64,000 bases of DNA from Minisyncoccota bacterium (GTDB lineage Bacteria; Patescibacteriota; Minisyncoccia; Phycocordibacterales; UBA5272). The stretch covers positions 57,759 to 121,758 of the forward strand of contig DALYEZ010000001.1 in assembly GCA_031972295.1 (NCBI GenBank), in the 5' to 3' direction. Positions 12,876-55,173 of the stretch are shown here, one piece after another. Positions within the stretch are counted from its first letter, which is position 1, and each line of letters starts with the position of its first letter. Below the pieces are notes generated by a model. The model did not search any database. It was not told the DNA's origin and was given only the letters and a program-made list of their open reading frames with translations. Made by a program: the position numbers and the translations under genes.

Positions 12876-13268
12876 CTACCTGAACATCCTTTTTAGCTCT
12901 GGCCGAAGGTGTCGATTTTCCAAAATCATTTCCTTCACGAACTGACTCGTGAAAGGCATGACCTTTTTAAACCTGTCAACCACCAGATCCTGTAGGATCG
13001 GGACCTTTTCCATAAGATCCACAAGGTGAAAAGGTGATTGCGTCCTTTCAATTACCTTACGACCGAGTTCAATCAATACCTTTTCAGGCATGATCAACAA
13101 TTTGTTTGCGCCACGCTTTTGGTTTTCACGAAGTCGAAAACCAAAGAGAAGAGCGTTGAACAGGATGTCTGGATCGTTTACATCACTAGAAGTGGTGATG
13201 TAAACGAGAACACTCTGAGTCTCGTGTGAACTTTTGGCGTCCATAAGACGCCCGATGTAATCGTCCAT
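12876..13268 (-). CDS. hypothetical protein (start taken at MDDYIG)
   Basis: ORF; internal ATG avoids overlap with the upstream small gene. Confidence 0.35.
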   Translation of the reverse strand: MDDYIGRLMDAKSSHETQSVLVYITTSSDVNDPDILFNALLFGFRLRENQKRGANKLLIMPEKVLIELGRKVIERTQSPFHLVDLMEKVPILQDLVVDRFKKVMPFTSQFVKEMILENRHLRPELKRMFR

Positions 13269-13270
13269 GG

Positions 13271-13531
13271 CTACAGTCCCAAAGCGGCGCGGCGGCCATC
13301 TGGGGTTGTCAGCCAGGTGGAAAAAATGAGGGCTGCGAAAGCTAGAAGCGTGCACAAGCAGAGAGCAACTGTGCCAACAGCAGCGAAAAAACTGCTACCC
13401 GAAACAATTGCCAAAAGGCTGGAGACCAACACGAACCCCAGAATAAAGAGTCCGGCCAGTACGAGAAACTTATTCACAGTTTTCATTGAAAAGATCCTCA
13501 AATTACCGCACCATTTGCGGATAAAAGACAC
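13271..13531 (-). CDS. small hypothetical membrane protein
   Basis: two predicted TM helices. Confidence 0.35.
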   Translation of the reverse strand: MSFIRKWCGNLRIFSMKTVNKFLVLAGLFILGFVLVSSLLAIVSGSSFFAAVGTVALCLCTLLAFAALIFSTWLTTPDGRRAALGL

Positions 13532-18664: not shown

Positions 18665-18771
18665 GGCGTTTCCTCCGAGGATTTTGGTTAAGAGAATACA
18701 AAGAACAACACACAATTCTTACCATAGGTTTGTTTTTTATTCAATAAAATCAGGTATACTAGTGAGTAATT

Positions 18772-29454: not shown

Positions 29455-29562
29455 CACTTATTTTGACTTTAATATAAAATATGGCATTATGTATCTAAGA
29501 GTTCTTTAGGTCTTAATGCTGTAGTGTTGTGCTGTACCAATTCAACTGATGCGGAGGTTGCC

Positions 29563-29892
29563 ATGCCAAGAGACATTTTTTCGGATAATGAACCAAGCGA
29601 TGAGGAGATCATGGAAGATGTGAGTGACCAAACATTGCGTCACATGCATCTTGGTGAAAACATCAACTACCTCAGCAACAAACTGTTCGACCACACTGGG
29701 ACGCTGGTTGACGGTACCACCAAGGACGACGTCGCAAGAATGACAACTTATGCCAAGATCGGACTCCTGGAACGCATGTACAACCACACCCAAATGCAAG
29801 GCACCGGCCTGTGTTGGGAAATCGGTGCTTTCCTAGAAGACATCAGTGAGGATGAGAAGCGAGGCTTCAAGACCACTGACGACTACAACTGA
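29563..29892 (+). CDS. hypothetical protein
   Basis: GGAGG SD before MPRDIF; acidic protein. Confidence 0.35.
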   Translation: MPRDIFSDNEPSDEEIMEDVSDQTLRHMHLGENINYLSNKLFDHTGTLVDGTTKDDVARMTTYAKIGLLERMYNHTQMQGTGLCWEIGAFLEDISEDEKRGFKTTDDYN

Positions 29893-29895
29893 ACA

Positions 29896-29958
29896 CAAAC
29901 CCGCTTTGATGCGGCAAATGGAAACCCGTTTGCTTTCATCGGAGCGGGTTTTCTTTTT
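29896..29958 (+). terminator. compound hairpin terminator (aacccgct...agcgggtttt)
   Basis: seen in sequence. Confidence 0.4.
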
Positions 29959-29974
29959 GACCTATAGAAGATTA

Positions 29975-30005
29975 TAGACATAGATAGGTAATCTATGGTA
30001 CGAAT
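29975..30005 (+). promoter_or_regulatory. TAGACA-N18-TACGAAT promoter
   Basis: same architecture at 30722 and 32500. Confidence 0.35.
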
Positions 30006-30050
30006 TACTTGAACAAGTTCGTTCACATACAAGCACAAGGGGAATCCGAG

Positions 30051-30665
30051 ATGAACAAGCCACAGATCAAGAGTATTGGAGCCGGTTCCGTAACTGTTTC
30101 TGGTTTGACTCGAGAAGATGAGGAACTCTTCCAAGGACTCATCAACGGTCATCAACGCCTCAGTGTAGTTGATGGCAAGCTCGTTGCAACAGCTGTTCAT
30201 GAACCGCTGCCTGATCCAACTACGGATGAGGAGATGGCTCCATTCTGGCGTAGATGCGCACCGAATGAGGGAATACTGCAAGAAGAACTGTTCGATCGTG
30301 AGAACTATCAGAACAGCCTGTCACCATCCATCCTGATTCAGTCGTTGTGCGGATATGGTTATACACCTGAGGCTTACCGAAATCAATCGGAGCGTCTCAA
30401 GGGATATGGATTCGCGCAATTACGATCGCAACGCAGTCCCAGTGGTCAGTACTACGAGATCTGGTATTTGGCTGGTCTCTACCTTGCCCAAGGTGGCCTG
30501 GCGGAAGCTGTCGCCAAGTTCAAAAGCAACAACATGAACCTGAAAGACACCCAGGAGTACGCAAGGCGTTCGTTTAAAGCGGCCACAGACTTCTTGGCGG
30601 CGAATGTTCGCTTCGGAACTCTCGATGTGTCCGTCCAACGGTGGGCGATGTGCATGTCAGATTGA
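30051..30665 (+). CDS. hypothetical protein
   Basis: SD aagggga before ATG 30051 (30009 is a TTG). Confidence 0.4.
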   Translation: MNKPQIKSIGAGSVTVSGLTREDEELFQGLINGHQRLSVVDGKLVATAVHEPLPDPTTDEEMAPFWRRCAPNEGILQEELFDRENYQNSLSPSILIQSLCGYGYTPEAYRNQSERLKGYGFAQLRSQRSPSGQYYEIWYLAGLYLAQGGLAEAVAKFKSNNMNLKDTQEYARRSFKAATDFLAANVRFGTLDVSVQRWAMCMSD

Positions 30666-30682
30666 GGGTATCCAAATTTAGT

Positions 30683-30718
30683 CCGTCACGATGTTGTGGC
30701 GGACTTTTCTTTTTATAT
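30683..30718 (+). terminator. intrinsic terminator agtccgtcac...gtggcggact plus T-run
   Basis: seen in sequence. Confidence 0.45.
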
Positions 30719-30721
30719 TAG

Positions 30722-30752
30722 AAACAAAGTCTAGACATGACACAATGTTGCG
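30722..30752 (+). promoter_or_regulatory. TAGACA-N18-TATGAAT promoter
   Basis: shared architecture; leader homologous to the one upstream of 31491. Confidence 0.35.
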
Positions 30753-30797
30753 TGTTATGAATTATTTACTGTTCTTTAACCAACCAGGAGATTCCTG

Positions 30798-31337
30798 ATG
30801 AAAGCTCTCGTAGCAGCGATTTTCGTCATTTTGATGGTCATAGTAGTAAAGCCTCTCTCGCGGATGAATCCTCCAACGGGTGGACTCTTCATGGCTGTGG
30901 CTTTCATCCTCGTACTCATTCTGTTGGATAGAGCAGAAGAGCACTTCCATAAGAAAAAAGGAAAGAAGGAGAAACGTCCTCGAAAAACGATTTCTACGAT
31001 TTATCGCAACTATGAACCAGTGCTACGATGGTCCATTCAAGATAAGGATAAGGATACGGATTATGATCCGGACACAGCCGTTTTGTTCGATTCCGTCGTC
31101 GCAGTCGATGTGAGTTTCAAACAGTCAGTACATCTTCGAGATGGATGCGCTGTCGTCGCTGAATGTGCAGCGGCCAAGGGCAGTAACGATCCGATCAAGC
31201 TCGGTTGGGAACACCGAACCATGCGTCTGTTTTTTGAAGGAAGTTTTTTCGATAAGCAGGGACGGAGAGTTGTGGGATGCCGCAAACTCACCATGCTTTC
31301 CGACGGGAAGATGTACGCATCAGGCGTTCGCTACTAG
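30798..31337 (+). CDS. membrane protein, family A full length (2 TM, basic linker, conserved C-terminal domain)
   Basis: AGGAG SD; C-terminal domain homologous to the 31896 gene (AVDVxFxQS, AEC, GCxKLxxLxxGxxYAS). Confidence 0.5.
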   Translation: MKALVAAIFVILMVIVVKPLSRMNPPTGGLFMAVAFILVLILLDRAEEHFHKKKGKKEKRPRKTISTIYRNYEPVLRWSIQDKDKDTDYDPDTAVLFDSVVAVDVSFKQSVHLRDGCAVVAECAAAKGSNDPIKLGWEHRTMRLFFEGSFFDKQGRRVVGCRKLTMLSDGKMYASGVRY

Positions 31338-31347
31338 AAAGTTCATA

Positions 31348-31406
31348 GACGGGAGGGAAGAAATTCCTCCCGTCTCAAGCCACTCAATTGAGTGGCTTTT
31401 ATTTTT
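31348..31406 (+). terminator. two-hairpin terminator (gacgggagg...cctcccgtc, then agccactcaattgagtggct plus U-run)
   Basis: the same two-hairpin design follows the 31896 gene. Confidence 0.5.
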
Positions 31407-31490
31407 CATAACAGAATAGACATTCATAGACGAAATAGTATATTTGTGGTAATAATTATCCATTGTTCTTTAACAGAAATGGAGGTTTGC

Positions 31491-31650
31491 ATGAAAGCTC
31501 TTCTGTTCATCATCTTGTTGGCCACACTGGCAGCAACGCTTCTTTCAAGTGTCGAGTCTCTGTCAGCAAAGATCGGCATCATTGTGGTAATGATCGCCAC
31601 ACTTATTTTCTGCGATATATATTCGCGGAAGAAAAAAGGGGGTGGACTCT
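31491..31650 (+). CDS. small 2-TM protein resembling the N-terminal module of family A (MKAL..., ends RKKKGGGL)
   Basis: GGAGG SD; upstream leader (ttgttctttaac) and first codons (ATGAAAGCTCT) shared with the 30798 gene. Confidence 0.4.
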
Positions 31651-31834
31651 AATGAGATTCCTTGCACTCCTATTAATGGTTTGCGTGATTGGCCTCACGT
31701 CGATAGTGCTTCGAAAGGTTGATTTTGTACTAGCAAGAGCCGCCATCATTCTTTTTTCCATCATCGTATTCATTCTCCTCGAGAGATACATCTCTGGGGA
31801 AAGGAAGGTCCGAAGGAGAAAAAGAAGAAGGTAA
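31651..31834 (+). CDS. small 2-TM protein resembling the N-terminal module of family B (MRF..., poly-Arg tail)
   Basis: its ATG directly follows the preceding TAA (TAATGA junction). Confidence 0.35.
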
Positions 31835-31895
31835 ATGGCAAGCTTAATCCAATAGACATCGACCGTGTCGCGAAATGAAATAAGGAGAAATTCCG

Positions 31896-32420
31896 ATGAG
31901 ATTTGTTGCGATCCTTTTCTGGATTGGTTTGCTGATATACCTGCTTTTACAGCAGGATGCTGAAACGAACAAGGGTCTTGGTGTTATAGCAGTGATCCTG
32001 ATGGGGACTTTTCTCTGGTGGCTCATCCAAAAGAAAAAGGCACCTGAGCAGAAAGATACGATGCGTCGGGCAATTACGATAAGTGTCAATTACTTGGATC
32101 GAGAGTCGCCAATACGTTGGCTCCTCCACCACCAAGAATATCCCGAAACCGTCCAGGCTTTACGATCTGTCTTTGCGGTTGATGTACGTTTTCTGCAATC
32201 AAAGGACTACGAAGCTGGGTACATCTGTACCTTGATCGCCGAATGCTGGATTGCCATAGGCAATGAAATGCCTCCTTCGGTACTCGAAAATGTTCTTTTG
32301 TCTTTCGATCGTCGCACTGGTTTTTTTACCGATAGATCTGGGAAGATTGCTGTAAGCTGTGGCAAACTCTATCTTCTTCCGAATGGAAGCATCTACGCCT
32401 CGAGTATCCAGTACAAGTAA
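31896..32420 (+). CDS. membrane protein, family B full length, paralog of the 30798 gene
   Basis: AAGGAG SD; conserved C-terminal domain. Confidence 0.5.
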   Translation: MRFVAILFWIGLLIYLLLQQDAETNKGLGVIAVILMGTFLWWLIQKKKAPEQKDTMRRAITISVNYLDRESPIRWLLHHQEYPETVQALRSVFAVDVRFLQSKDYEAGYICTLIAECWIAIGNEMPPSVLENVLLSFDRRTGFFTDRSGKIAVSCGKLYLLPNGSIYASSIQYK

Positions 32421-32426
32421 TTTCAT

Positions 32427-32482
32427 CAGATGAAAGAACAGGGAGTTCTTTCATCTGAAGCCGCTCAATTGGGCGGTTTTTT
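32427..32482 (+). terminator. two-hairpin terminator (cagatgaaagaac...gttctttcatctg, then gccgctcaattgggcgg plus U6)
   Basis: 13-bp stem then a second hairpin with the same caattg loop as at 31378. Confidence 0.5.
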
Positions 32483-32499
32483 GTTGTAAATATTTTCCA

Positions 32500-32530
32500 T
32501 AGACAGAAATATACAGTCGTGGTACGAATG
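32500..32530 (+). promoter_or_regulatory. TAGACA-N18-TACGAAT promoter
   Basis: seen in sequence. Confidence 0.35.
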
Positions 32531-32564
32531 AGGAGTTGCACAAATACAACCAGAGGAGAACAAC

Positions 32565-33287
32565 ATGTCAGGTTACATAAGCAGTGCTGTGGAACAAGGT
32601 GACAGGGAATATCAACAAGACCGAGATTTCATCAAGGTGGCAGAAGGATATTCTATTCTTGCCGTCATGGATGGTCACGGCGAGAGAGGGTCGGAGATAG
32701 CGGAGTTCTGCAAGGTAGCCATCGGCGAGATTCTCGCAAACGAGGGGTACGCTTCAGATCCGGAAGAAGTGATCGGAAAGATCTTTACTGAACTCCTCGA
32801 GAAAGCCCCGTACCAGCACGATGGCGGCACAACACTTTCAATCGCCTGGATCAAGGAAGACAAAGCGGTCATCGGTGTGCTCGGCGATTCGCCGGTGCTG
32901 GTTGTGGACAAGTCTGGGCGGTGGTACAAGAGTCCTCTCCACAACACTTCAAACCAAGCAGAAAAGGATGCTGTTTTGGCAAAGGGTGGAAAGGTCGTCA
33001 CCAAGAACAACTGTCTGTACTTCCATGACCCCATGCATTACGGCGAGTACATCCAACTCAGCCGTGCAATCGGCGACAAAGTGTTCCAGGACATTCTCTT
33101 GCGAGAACCTGATATCTACACTGTCCCGAACCCCAAGTATGTTCTGGTTTCAAGCGACGGACTCCGCAGAGCAATCGCTGTAACCGTAAAAGACGACTCG
33201 ACCGCAGAAGGTCTCATGGAAGAAGCCAGGAAGTATGCCGGCGGGTTGTGGGACAATACCACGGTTCTTTTGTGGAAAAGTGCGTGA
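32565..33287 (+). CDS. PP2C-family (PPM) Ser/Thr protein phosphatase
   Basis: YQQDRDF...AVMDGHGERG...GDSPV...SDGL motifs. Confidence 0.75.
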   Translation: MSGYISSAVEQGDREYQQDRDFIKVAEGYSILAVMDGHGERGSEIAEFCKVAIGEILANEGYASDPEEVIGKIFTELLEKAPYQHDGGTTLSIAWIKEDKAVIGVLGDSPVLVVDKSGRWYKSPLHNTSNQAEKDAVLAKGGKVVTKNNCLYFHDPMHYGEYIQLSRAIGDKVFQDILLREPDIYTVPNPKYVLVSSDGLRRAIAVTVKDDSTAEGLMEEARKYAGGLWDNTTVLLWKSA

Positions 33288-33445
33288 GGCAAATAACGCA
33301 AACCATCTACCCTTAGAGAGGCCGATACACTGGTCTCTCAAGGGAGGTGGTTTTTTATTTTTATTAGAGGATAGAGATAAAAATTTTATACGCTATACTT
33401 TGAAATATGCAAATTACTAAGCTTGGAAATTGAAATACAATAAAT

Positions 33446-38913: not shown

Positions 38914-39423
38914 TCGAAAAAAACGGACGGCCAGAGGGCATTAACCAACAAGTTAGTGCCTTTTTATTTGCTTATATAAAAATAGAAAACCCGTCTTGCA
39001 ATAGGTTTTCTATTACATAAACGGGTTGTTACATTGAACCTGGCGATGGTTGAATTGGCGACAGTTGTTTCAACTCTTCAGAAAAAGCCACTGTGGGCTT
39101 ATCTCCCGAGAAGTTCTGGATGATGAATGCTTCGACACCATGTACCATGGTTGACTGAACCACTTTCATCTCACCACCTGAGACGCGACTGAGATCGCCA
39201 TAAAGCGGGGTGAAAAGAACAATACCCTTCATTGAATCCCTCCTCCTACAGTTGGTAAAAAGGAAACCACGCCATTAATTTATACTATATATTTGAATAA
39301 AAGTCAATAATACTAACCCTCACAACCTCCTCCCCCTTCAAAATCTAAGGGGAGATCATTATTGACAAATATGTACTCTAGTGGTAAAAATTGTTATTGT
39401 TCTCTGACAGAAGGGTGGTTTAT

Positions 39424-39666
39424 ATGCGAAACAAACTTCTGAGTGTATTTCTCGGAACAAATCCCAGCGACAAGGATATTTACGAGGCCAAAGGATTTTT
39501 GGCAGTAGCTGGCTTCCTTCTGTGGTTCTTTTGTTTTGCAATAATCGCGGAGCAAGGAATGCCATTCAGTTGGGCAGTACTCTTGCTGGCAGTTTGGGTA
39601 AGAATCATTAAGGCACTTGAAACCAATTTCGAGAAAGCGTCCGAACTTGAACGAGGAGGTGGCTAG
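39424..39666 (+). CDS. small hypothetical membrane protein
   Basis: 2 TM helices; start MRNKLL. Confidence 0.3.
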   Translation: MRNKLLSVFLGTNPSDKDIYEAKGFLAVAGFLLWFFCFAIIAEQGMPFSWAVLLLAVWVRIIKALETNFEKASELERGGG

Positions 39667-39947
39667 TGAAAATGACAGTTGCTTCAGCCTGTATTTATTT
39701 TATCGGCAAGGATGCCGATCCCGACAAACTGAATACCTTCAGAGTGCGCCTCTGGTTCGTGGTAGTGATTTTTTTCTTGTCGCTCACCACCATCGTCATC
39801 GCCATGTGTATGGAGATAGAAAATGGATGGATTGCTCTTCCTATCTGCCTTTGGAGCATGACGATGGCGAGTATTTACCGTTCGAAAACAATTTCAATTC
39901 AACAAGACAAACTAAGGAGGGGTGAATTTTGGACCCGCAAAGAATAA
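39666..39947 (+). CDS. small hypothetical membrane protein
   Basis: 2 TM helices; start overlaps the preceding stop. Confidence 0.3.
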   Translation: MKMTVASACIYFIGKDADPDKLNTFRVRLWFVVVIFFLSLTTIVIAMCMEIENGWIALPICLWSMTMASIYRSKTISIQQDKLRRGEFWTRKE

Positions 39948-40123
39948 GACTCTCACGAAATTTTGGACAGATATGGCATCGAGAATAAATCCGGTGCCAT
40001 TTTATTTTGCAAAAAAAGTAAATCCTAAAAATCCTAATATAGATTCACTTGCTGTAAACGAATTACTACTCCGAGTAGAGAAACTTGCAATAAAACGGCA
40101 TGTATACTATAGAATAGTAAGTT

Positions 40124-49518: not shown

Positions 49519-49974
49519 CTATTTTGCGAGACAAGCCGAGAGATCCTCGGCATACCAGTTGGCGTCAAGGAAAGAATAGAACCAATCCCACACGCGACCA
49601 TTCCAGCGCAGACACAGAACACATCGGTCGCCGTCTGAATTACGAAGAATGCTTCCCCCGAATAGGATCCCGTCACTGGTTTTCCAGCTTTCGGGGATCA
49701 ATGAGTCCTGCTCCCAGAGGGTCTGGAGAACTTTCGCATCGAGGCGGATGTGTCCCACCTCTTTAAGGCGACGGATCTTTTCTTCGCTTTGGATCGACAC
49801 CTCACCGGAGCGAAGCATCGTCTCAAAGGTGACCTTGTTCAGATCAAGTTCGGTAAGCGCGAGTGAGCGCTCATCCTGTTCTTCAATCGACCAGCCCTTG
49901 CCCATGAAGGCGCTGGGGTCGAATGGAGTGGTGCGGTCAATACAAATCAAGTTTGAATTAGTTACCATCGTCAT
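49519..49974 (-). CDS. hypothetical protein (GC-elevated ORFan)
   Basis: 151-aa ORF, about 55% GC against about 42% in gap. Confidence 0.35.
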   Translation of the reverse strand: MTMVTNSNLICIDRTTPFDPSAFMGKGWSIEEQDERSLALTELDLNKVTFETMLRSGEVSIQSEEKIRRLKEVGHIRLDAKVLQTLWEQDSLIPESWKTSDGILFGGSILRNSDGDRCVLCLRWNGRVWDWFYSFLDANWYAEDLSACLAK

Positions 49975-55017: not shown

Positions 55018-55173
55018 ATGTTGATTATACCAAGTAACCTGGGGACAGCAGTCTTTACAAAAATGAGTTTAGTAGTATAAAGGAAAGGTTGACTGTTGTT
55101 CTTTGCAAAGACTACTTTGTATTTAAAAGCCCGAATACACTGTAGTTATCCTGGAAGGGCTAGTGAGGTAACC

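Follow-up and report, generated by a model that had tools for sequence, protein, structure and literature searches.

The stretch of DNA analyzed here, referred to throughout as the window, comprises 64,000 nucleotides (nt) of a Minisyncoccota bacterium (contig DALYEZ010000001.1, positions 57,759 to 121,758 of the forward strand). The subject of interest is a bipartite, promoter-like element, TAGACA followed 17 or 18 nt later by TA(C/T)GAAT, which recurs in front of several genes of an island at 29563-33287. The island lies on the + strand and holds seven genes, labeled A to G:

29563-29892, + strand: gene A, 109 amino acids (aa)
30051-30665, + strand: gene B, 204 aa, member of a family of unknown function
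30798-31337, + strand: gene C, two predicted transmembrane segments (by eye from the sequence) and an all-beta C-terminal domain
31491-31652, + strand: gene D, small membrane protein
31652-31834, + strand: gene E, small membrane protein
31896-32420, + strand: gene F, paralog of C with 34% identity
32565-33287, + strand: gene G, PP2C phosphatase

The island is compositionally foreign and acquired: the GC content at third codon positions (GC3) of its genes is 0.44-0.60, compared with 0.34 +/- 0.07 in 64 host open reading frames (ORFs), and its codon choices are clearly unlike those of the same host ORFs. The host is a Patescibacterium, as indicated by the source names of homologs and by the neighboring genes. 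The PP2C phosphatase is the sole functional identification among the island proteins (Pfam, PHROGs, PADLOC and NCBIfam), the others being orphans. Within the island, C, D, E and F are nested paralogs (30798-32420). Gene D has its start and upstream region in common with C, visible as DNA-level repeats within the region, while E has its start in common with F and its second transmembrane segment in common with C (DNA repeats D1, D4 and D9); D and E thus resemble truncated copies retaining the membrane part alone.

A sequence-only reading of this DNA had placed TAGACA, exactly 18 nt and then TACGAAT or TATGAAT upstream of the genes at 30051, 30798 and 32565. The bipartite motif is real and non-random: when spacers of 16 to 19 nt are allowed, the window (64 kb, both strands) contains three matches against 0.02 expected, and none of 100 shuffles reaches three, which excludes a chance origin. 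All three matches are intergenic and on the + strand, with the motif starting 65-76 nt upstream of the respective ATGs. The exact 18-nt spacing holds for the copies at 29975-30005 and 30732-30762 and fails for the third, at 32500-32529, where the spacer is 17 nt; likewise, an extra GGTACGAAT that had been assigned to the last two copies is in fact present in the first and third, the second reading GTTATGAAT. Neither half-site carries the signal by itself, with TAGACA not over-represented in the window (20 copies, 28 expected) and TAYGAAT, at 30 copies against 20 expected, not counted as such; the signal is the pairing of the half-sites and their location. Outside the window, the pattern TAGAC[AG]-N16-18-TAnnAAT matched once in 0.98 Mb of other loci.

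The same reading had also pointed to TAGACA ahead of the 31491 and 31896 genes, and the hexamer is indeed present at 31417 and 31853, although the -10 candidates proposed with it fare less well. For the 31491 gene, TAGACA-N16-TATATT gives way to a homologous and better candidate, a previously unrecognized fourth copy that reads TAGACG (31427)-N17-TGG-TAATAAT (31450-31456). For the 31896 gene, TGAAAT (31876-31881) is doubtful as a -10 element: only 2 nt separate it from the Shine-Dalgarno site, its second position is not A, and no terminator precedes it. Four island sites, at 29975, 30732, 31427 and 32500, thereby fit TAGAC(A/G)-N17/18-(TGn)TAnnAAT. These sites and the related elements of the window are as follows:

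29463-29490, + strand: P0, TTGACT-N16-(TGG)CATTAT, candidate promoter of gene A, with a canonical -35 box and not TAGACA; GTTCTTTA follows it at 29501
29964-29969, + strand: extra ATAGAA box, exactly 10 base pairs (bp) upstream of the P1 -35 box
29975-30005, + strand: P1, TAGACA-N18-(TGG)TACGAAT, putative promoter of gene B, its -10 element ending 45 nt before the ATG
30732-30762, + strand: P2, TAGACA-N18-(TGT)TATGAAT, putative promoter of gene C, its leader containing TGTTCTTTAAC
31416-31456, + strand: P3, ATAGAC (31416) and TAGACG (31427)-N17-(TGG)TAATAAT (31450-31456), putative promoter of D-E-F (31491-32420)
31853-31881, + strand: P4, TAGACA-N17-TGAAAT before gene F, abutting the Shine-Dalgarno site
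32500-32529, + strand: P5, TAGACA-N17-(TGG)TACGAAT, putative promoter of gene G
33372-33399, + strand: P6, TAGAGA-N16-TATACT before the host EVE-domain gene (33446)
39362-39391, + strand: P7, TTGACA-N17-(TGG)TAAAAAT (TGGTAAAAAT) with leader TTGTTCTCTGAC, outside the island
18715-18744, - strand: P8, TTGAAT-N17-(TGG)TAAGAAT (TGGTAAGAAT) with leader TTGTTCTTTG, before the host M49 peptidase gene (18664-17297)

In their layout, the four island elements correspond closely to one another. Their -35 hexamers match TTGACA at five of six positions in P1, P2 and P5 (TAGACA) and at four of six in P3 (TAGACG), and the spacers to TAnnAA are 18 nt in P1 and P2 and 17 nt in P3 and P5, as also in P7 and P8. 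A TGn triplet precedes the -10 element in each case (TGT in P2, TGG in P1, P3, P5, P7 and P8), and when the -10 elements are aligned on it they read TACGAA, TATGAA and TAATAA, with TA at positions 1-2 in all copies. For P3, the TATATT arrangement described above persists as an overlapping alternative (TAGACA at 31417), and the spacer of P1 contains a 7-bp inverted repeat, CATAGAT/ATCTATG. P4 lacks both a preceding terminator and a usable -10 element and is probably a vestigial copy; by eye it looks like a deleted copy of P2, an origin we rejected, the alignment not being significant. The layout of P6 is that of the island units, a terminator T-run followed by ATAGAsA.

The second half of the motif is not island-specific. 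TGGTAnnAAT also lies ahead of three host genes, at 18715 (-), 39391 (+) and 60197 (+), and by our own reading six of its 11 window copies are in or abut gene-upstream DNA, which makes up about 9% of the sequence; the automatic gene-model flag marked only the three island copies as intergenic.

At all four island sites the motif starts 11-26 nt past the T-run of a terminator and ends 34-45 nt before an ATG that bears a GGAG-type Shine-Dalgarno site, so that the suggestion of promoter-like elements before separate units is borne out by a constant order of terminator, motif, leader, Shine-Dalgarno site and ATG. Hairpin and T-run terminators follow A, B, C, F and G, with folding energies of -18 to -36 kcal/mol and z-scores of -4.1 to -8.0 (RNA folding versus shuffles):

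29897-29958, + strand: terminator after A, long hairpin then T-run, -35.8 kcal/mol, z=-8.0
30680-30715, + strand: intrinsic terminator after B, z=-4.1
31347-31407, + strand: double-hairpin terminator after C, z=-7.9
32426-32486, + strand: double-hairpin terminator after F, z=-6.7
33291-33362, + strand: intrinsic terminator after G, z=-6.9, its 5' flank bearing a 24-nt inverted match to gene E

Since these strong terminators part A, B, C, F and G from one another, the downstream genes would need promoters of their own, and folding of the E-F gap gave no comparable terminator (z=+1.1). We infer from this arrangement the transcription units A, B, C, D-E-F and G. The second hairpins of the C and F terminators are 82% identical. 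Their first hairpins (31347-31375 and 32426-32458), by contrast, occupy homologous positions and have perfect stems with no common sequence. Transcription is predicted to start near 30012, 30769, 31463 and 32536, about 6-9 nt past TAnnAAT. At the predicted 5' end of the mRNA, 7-11 nt past the -10 element, we also observed a pyrimidine-rich block, (T)GTTCTYT(A/G), at 29501, 30771 and 31465, with variants at 30017, 39399 and 18706 (minus strand); three of the four window copies of GTTCTTTA lie in leaders within the island, those of genes A, C and D. No conserved RNA secondary structure was found in the shared leader, and an Rfam scan of the window returned a single tRNA.

The intergenic regions (IG) that contain these elements are in part recognizably homologous. 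Local alignment against shuffles gave z=7.5 for IG2 and IG3, z=8.5 for IG3 and IG5, z=3.4 for IG1 and IG3, and z=2.6 for IG1 and IG5, while IG3 aligned with z=4.8 to the region before the host EVE gene (IG6), which has ATAGAGA-N16-TATACT after the last terminator of the island. The upstream regions of C and D have 42 nt in common, from the -10 element through the Shine-Dalgarno site, and the 3' flanks of C and F a common terminator (82% identity) with ATAGACA after it. The earlier proposal that the set was duplicated as a unit is thus upheld in part, for the IG2/IG3 and IG3/IG5 pairs and for the C/F paralogs.

The strongest relationship leads out of the island. An 11-nt block, TGTTCTTTAAC, common to the C and D leaders led to a further copy of the module at 39348-39423, and P3 aligns with this P7 copy with z=11.7 and 75% identity over 73 columns (38/50 in the best 50-column window). 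In this alignment the TTGACA of P7 falls on the TAGACG of P3, and a profile built from five module copies also detects the upstream region of the M49 peptidase gene, P8 (nhmmer E=9.5e-4). With TTGACA (P7) and TTGAAT (P8) at the homologous position, TAGACA therefore stands in the -35 position of a recognizable promoter family. The island promoters are thus related by descent as diverged copies of one module. The genes behind P7 encode two small membrane proteins, at 39424 and 39672, of 80 and 91 aa and with a two-transmembrane look (locus 39348-39950), and no protein similarity was found among the genes behind P1, P5, P7 and P8. Terminator stems, -35 boxes and -10 boxes are retained between the C and F flanks although the two proteins are now only 34% identical, and this preservation of both boxes in register would suggest constraint, as judged from paralogous copies in one clonal genome.

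The host itself offers a reference for these elements. The words most enriched in its intergenic DNA are ATTGACA (TTGACA), TATAAT, TATACT, GGTATA and GCTATA, and the organism therefore uses canonical sigma-70 signals. In eight long host ORFs TATA(A/C)T stops exactly 6 nt short of the ATG, and in 15 the distance is 6-11 nt, with examples at 852, 2374, 28981, 44035 and 51193 on the + strand and at 55029, 51171 and 49380 on the - strand. Such proximity to the ATG implies that leaderless mRNAs are widespread in the host. The contrast with the core genes drawn in the sequence-only reading is therefore accurate, as those genes use ATTGACA and TATA(A/C)T, with the -10 element often ending exactly 6 nt before the ATG, and island and core genes differ in -35 sequence, -10 form, leader length and Shine-Dalgarno use. 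Our literature search found no paper on leaderless mRNAs in Patescibacteria and no experimental mapping of promoters or transcription starts for this group.

Taken together, we consider it likely that the island elements are housekeeping sigma-70-type promoters with an extended -10 element, re-initiating transcription after terminators and multiplied by local duplication of a module. TAGACA would be the -35 hexamer TTGACA with one base changed, and TGn with TAnnAA(T) would constitute the extended -10 element. Every promoter would restart transcription right after a strong rho-independent terminator, so that the foreign island would be expressed as separate leadered, Shine-Dalgarno-dependent units. 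The resemblance among the promoters would stem from their being diverged copies of a single module, comprising terminator, promoter and 5' leader, which would have spread inside the island by local duplication and would also lie before unrelated chromosomal genes elsewhere. The sigma factor used, the start sites and selection for the persistence of the boxes are all inferred from sequence. So understood, the case is one of ordinary promoter reuse, with no new regulatory system or principle.

The closest known architecture is the sigma-70 extended -10 promoter (TGnTATAAT), with which the island elements have in common a -35-like hexamer matching TTGACA at up to five of six positions, a spacer of 17-18 nt, within the usual 17 +/- 1 bp, TGn before a -10 element that begins with TA, an intergenic position between a terminator and a leadered gene, and homologous modules that bear TTGACA or TTGAAT. 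Several observations nevertheless weigh against this interpretation. The normally well-conserved second position of the -35 hexamer is A in all four island promoters, whereas it is T in the nearest module outside the island, P7. The -10 element is also atypical compared with TATAAT: position 6 of the hexamer is A, and the conserved final T comes one base later, giving the 7-mer TAnnAAT. In addition, the excess of ATAGAC boxes extends past the four -35 sites, and this surplus, together with the A at position 2, would fit a factor that reads ATAGAC specifically. Finally, the recovered copies of the genome are 99.94-100% identical, with two single-base differences, and therefore provide no population variation on which constraint could be tested.

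The first alternative is that the ATAGAC boxes are sites for a dedicated regulator, such as an activator or a repressor bound to direct repeats over the -35 region, or for an alternative sigma factor, the island genes forming a regulon in which TAGACA is kept for that factor and not as a weak -35 box. Six of the 20 + strand copies of ATAGAC in the window fall in the 808 nt of island intergenic DNA, where 0.18 would be expected (P about 4e-8), and none occurs there on the minus strand. A second box lies exactly 10 bp upstream of the -35 hexamer in P1 (ATAGAA, 29964) and P3 (ATAGAC, 31416), an arrangement reminiscent of PhoB/OmpR-type activator sites, whose direct repeats recur at 10-11 bp in every regulated promoter and either overlap the -35 box or take its place. 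The box also appears bound to the island: TAGACA was found in one of about 34 upstream regions of gene B homologs (L053, TAGACA-N17-TAGTAT), and it therefore belongs to the island and does not travel with gene B. However, the phasing is present in only two of the four promoters, reaches roughly P=0.01 by our own estimate allowing for the several offsets tried, and would also result from a 10-nt tandem microduplication, while the extra boxes at 31345 and 31852 fall in a terminator stem and in the vestigial copy, respectively. Searches with Pfam, NCBIfam and PADLOC detected no DNA-binding regulator or sigma factor in the island, no response regulator was identified nearby, and the ATAGAM box has no known sequence relationship to pho or OmpR boxes. 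As position, spacing and the TGn extended -10 element are fully covered by sigma-70 architecture, we regard a dedicated factor as unlikely. Co-regulation by a special sigma or transcription factor, as put forward in the earlier note, is superfluous for these data and unproven, given the 73-nt homologous module with TTGACA at the same position (39362; z=11.7).

A broader version of this idea would have the island as a regulon derived from a mobile element, in which the ATAGAC boxes are read by a regulator or through an altered sigma specificity and TGnTAnnAAT is a lineage-specific -10 variant, beside a mostly leaderless host transcriptome; we consider this combination decidedly unlikely. It is very improbable, furthermore, that the motif is a duplication relic devoid of promoter function, the genes being expressed from elsewhere, for instance from transcripts that start at the promoter of gene A (29463) and read through. 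The intergenic regions are demonstrably homologous and the 31853 copy looks like such a relic. Against this, A, B, C, F and G are set apart by strong terminators (z=-4 to -8), the sequence of the boxes and the 17-18 nt register have been preserved while C and F have fallen to 34% identity, and other genes lie behind a version of this module that has a canonical -35 box. Promoters of non-sigma-70 type, namely sigma-54 (TGGCAC-N5-TTGC, with GG at -24 and GC at -12 spaced by exactly 12 nt), extracytoplasmic function (ECF; GAAC...CGT) or sigma-H-like (GAAT as -10 element), are excluded on register and sequence: TGGTACG of P1 and P5 resembles the -24 element TGGCACG, but P2 has TGTTAT without GG, TTG is out of register by 2 nt in P1 and by 5 nt in P5, and P1 has no GC at -12; GAAT resembles the -10 element of Bacillus sigma-H, by the generally known consensus sequences, but no AGGA-type -35 box is present and sigma-H would require a spacer shorter than 17-18 nt; and the GAAC/CGT pair of ECF promoters is missing.

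Beyond promoter architecture, the modules invite comparison with putative mobile promoters (Matus-Garcia, Nijveen, van Passel, Nucleic Acids Res 2012; PMC3488235), which likewise consist of homologous upstream regions before non-homologous genes in one genome. The non-homologous genes behind the present modules are B, C, D, the PP2C phosphatase, the two small membrane proteins and the M49 peptidase. The copies are nevertheless too diverged for the published cut-off, 80% identity or more across a minimum of 50 nt (even the best pair, P3/P7, stays below it), and part of their spread is tandem duplication of a gene with its flanks (C/F and C/D). The island also resembles phage morons and acquired single-gene units in that genes are bracketed by their own promoter and rho-independent terminator and have foreign codon usage, and in that the C-terminal domain fold of C and F matches solely phage proteins. 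Unlike in phage morons, no prophage, integrase, tRNA, or flanking or att repeat was found at the island borders, island DNA did not match deposited phage genomes, and no relatives of A, B or G were found in IMG/VR viral contigs. We rejected integron attC cassettes, promoterless genes set between attC recombination sites beside an integron integrase, as a description of the locus: the hairpins with T-runs are terminators, each gene has its own promoter-like element and no integrase is among the annotated neighbors.

Homolog searches give further information on the origin of the island genes. All contigs that bear island proteins belong to the same strain, and the flanking GSDH gene, used as a query against genome contigs, retrieved only relatives with at most 43% identity, in unrelated phyla. 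The organism occurs in SRR6410602, in SRR4000976 and in aquatic metagenomes of PRJNA377521. Gene B represents a Patescibacteria-wide family of unknown function whose members are single and in varied contexts (21 proteins, 34 metagenome loci); in other Patescibacteria its homologs stand alone behind their own promoters, mostly of TTGACA type, with long leaders. The structure model of the gene B product had no fold match. No close homologs of C and F were present in the indexed search. Their C-terminal domain belongs to an uncharacterized family of 110-130 aa proteins (160 representatives) without Pfam or PHROG match, one member of which lies on a phage-like contig of small ORFs. The confident domain model is all-beta (predicted local distance difference test score of 87) with no PDB match, and weakly resembles (E about 1e-3, template modeling score about 0.6) phage proteins of predicted structure, among them several multi-domain proteins longer than 700 aa. 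Searches for the module itself were negative: the pattern of -10 element and leader gave 47 single matches in IMG/VR, a number consistent with chance, and a profile hidden Markov model run over 1.4 Mb of fetched loci gave no convincing match, the best (E=0.007) being in a locus that had itself been retrieved by pattern.

The locus provides a clean comparative case, in which a seemingly leaderless host, an acquired leadered island and a small family of propagated promoter-leader modules coexist, and it yields concrete start-site predictions that can be tested, as well as elements that might serve in genetic tools for Patescibacteria. The motif itself may be less interesting than four side observations: the leaderless character of the host, the 7-nt form of the -10 element, the phasing of the ATAGAC boxes and a 24-nt complementarity between genes E and G.

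Two further ORFs of the window are GC3 outliers relative to the host mean of 0.34, one at 49519-49974 (-) with 0.62 and one at 12876-13355 (-) with 0.53, and may therefore be additional acquired genes. The former sits behind a textbook TTGACA-N18-TATAAT promoter (50127-50098). The E/G complementarity, for its part, is a 24-nt inverted match between 31676-31699 and 33283-33306 with 22 of 24 positions complementary, and none of 200 shuffles of the 4-kb region yields such a match. One arm covers codons 9-16 of gene E, and the other spans the stop codon of gene G together with 19 nt at the start of its 3' untranslated region. The match could be the relic of an inverted gene fragment or an RNA-RNA pairing site at which the D-E-F mRNA meets the 3' end of the gene G transcript.

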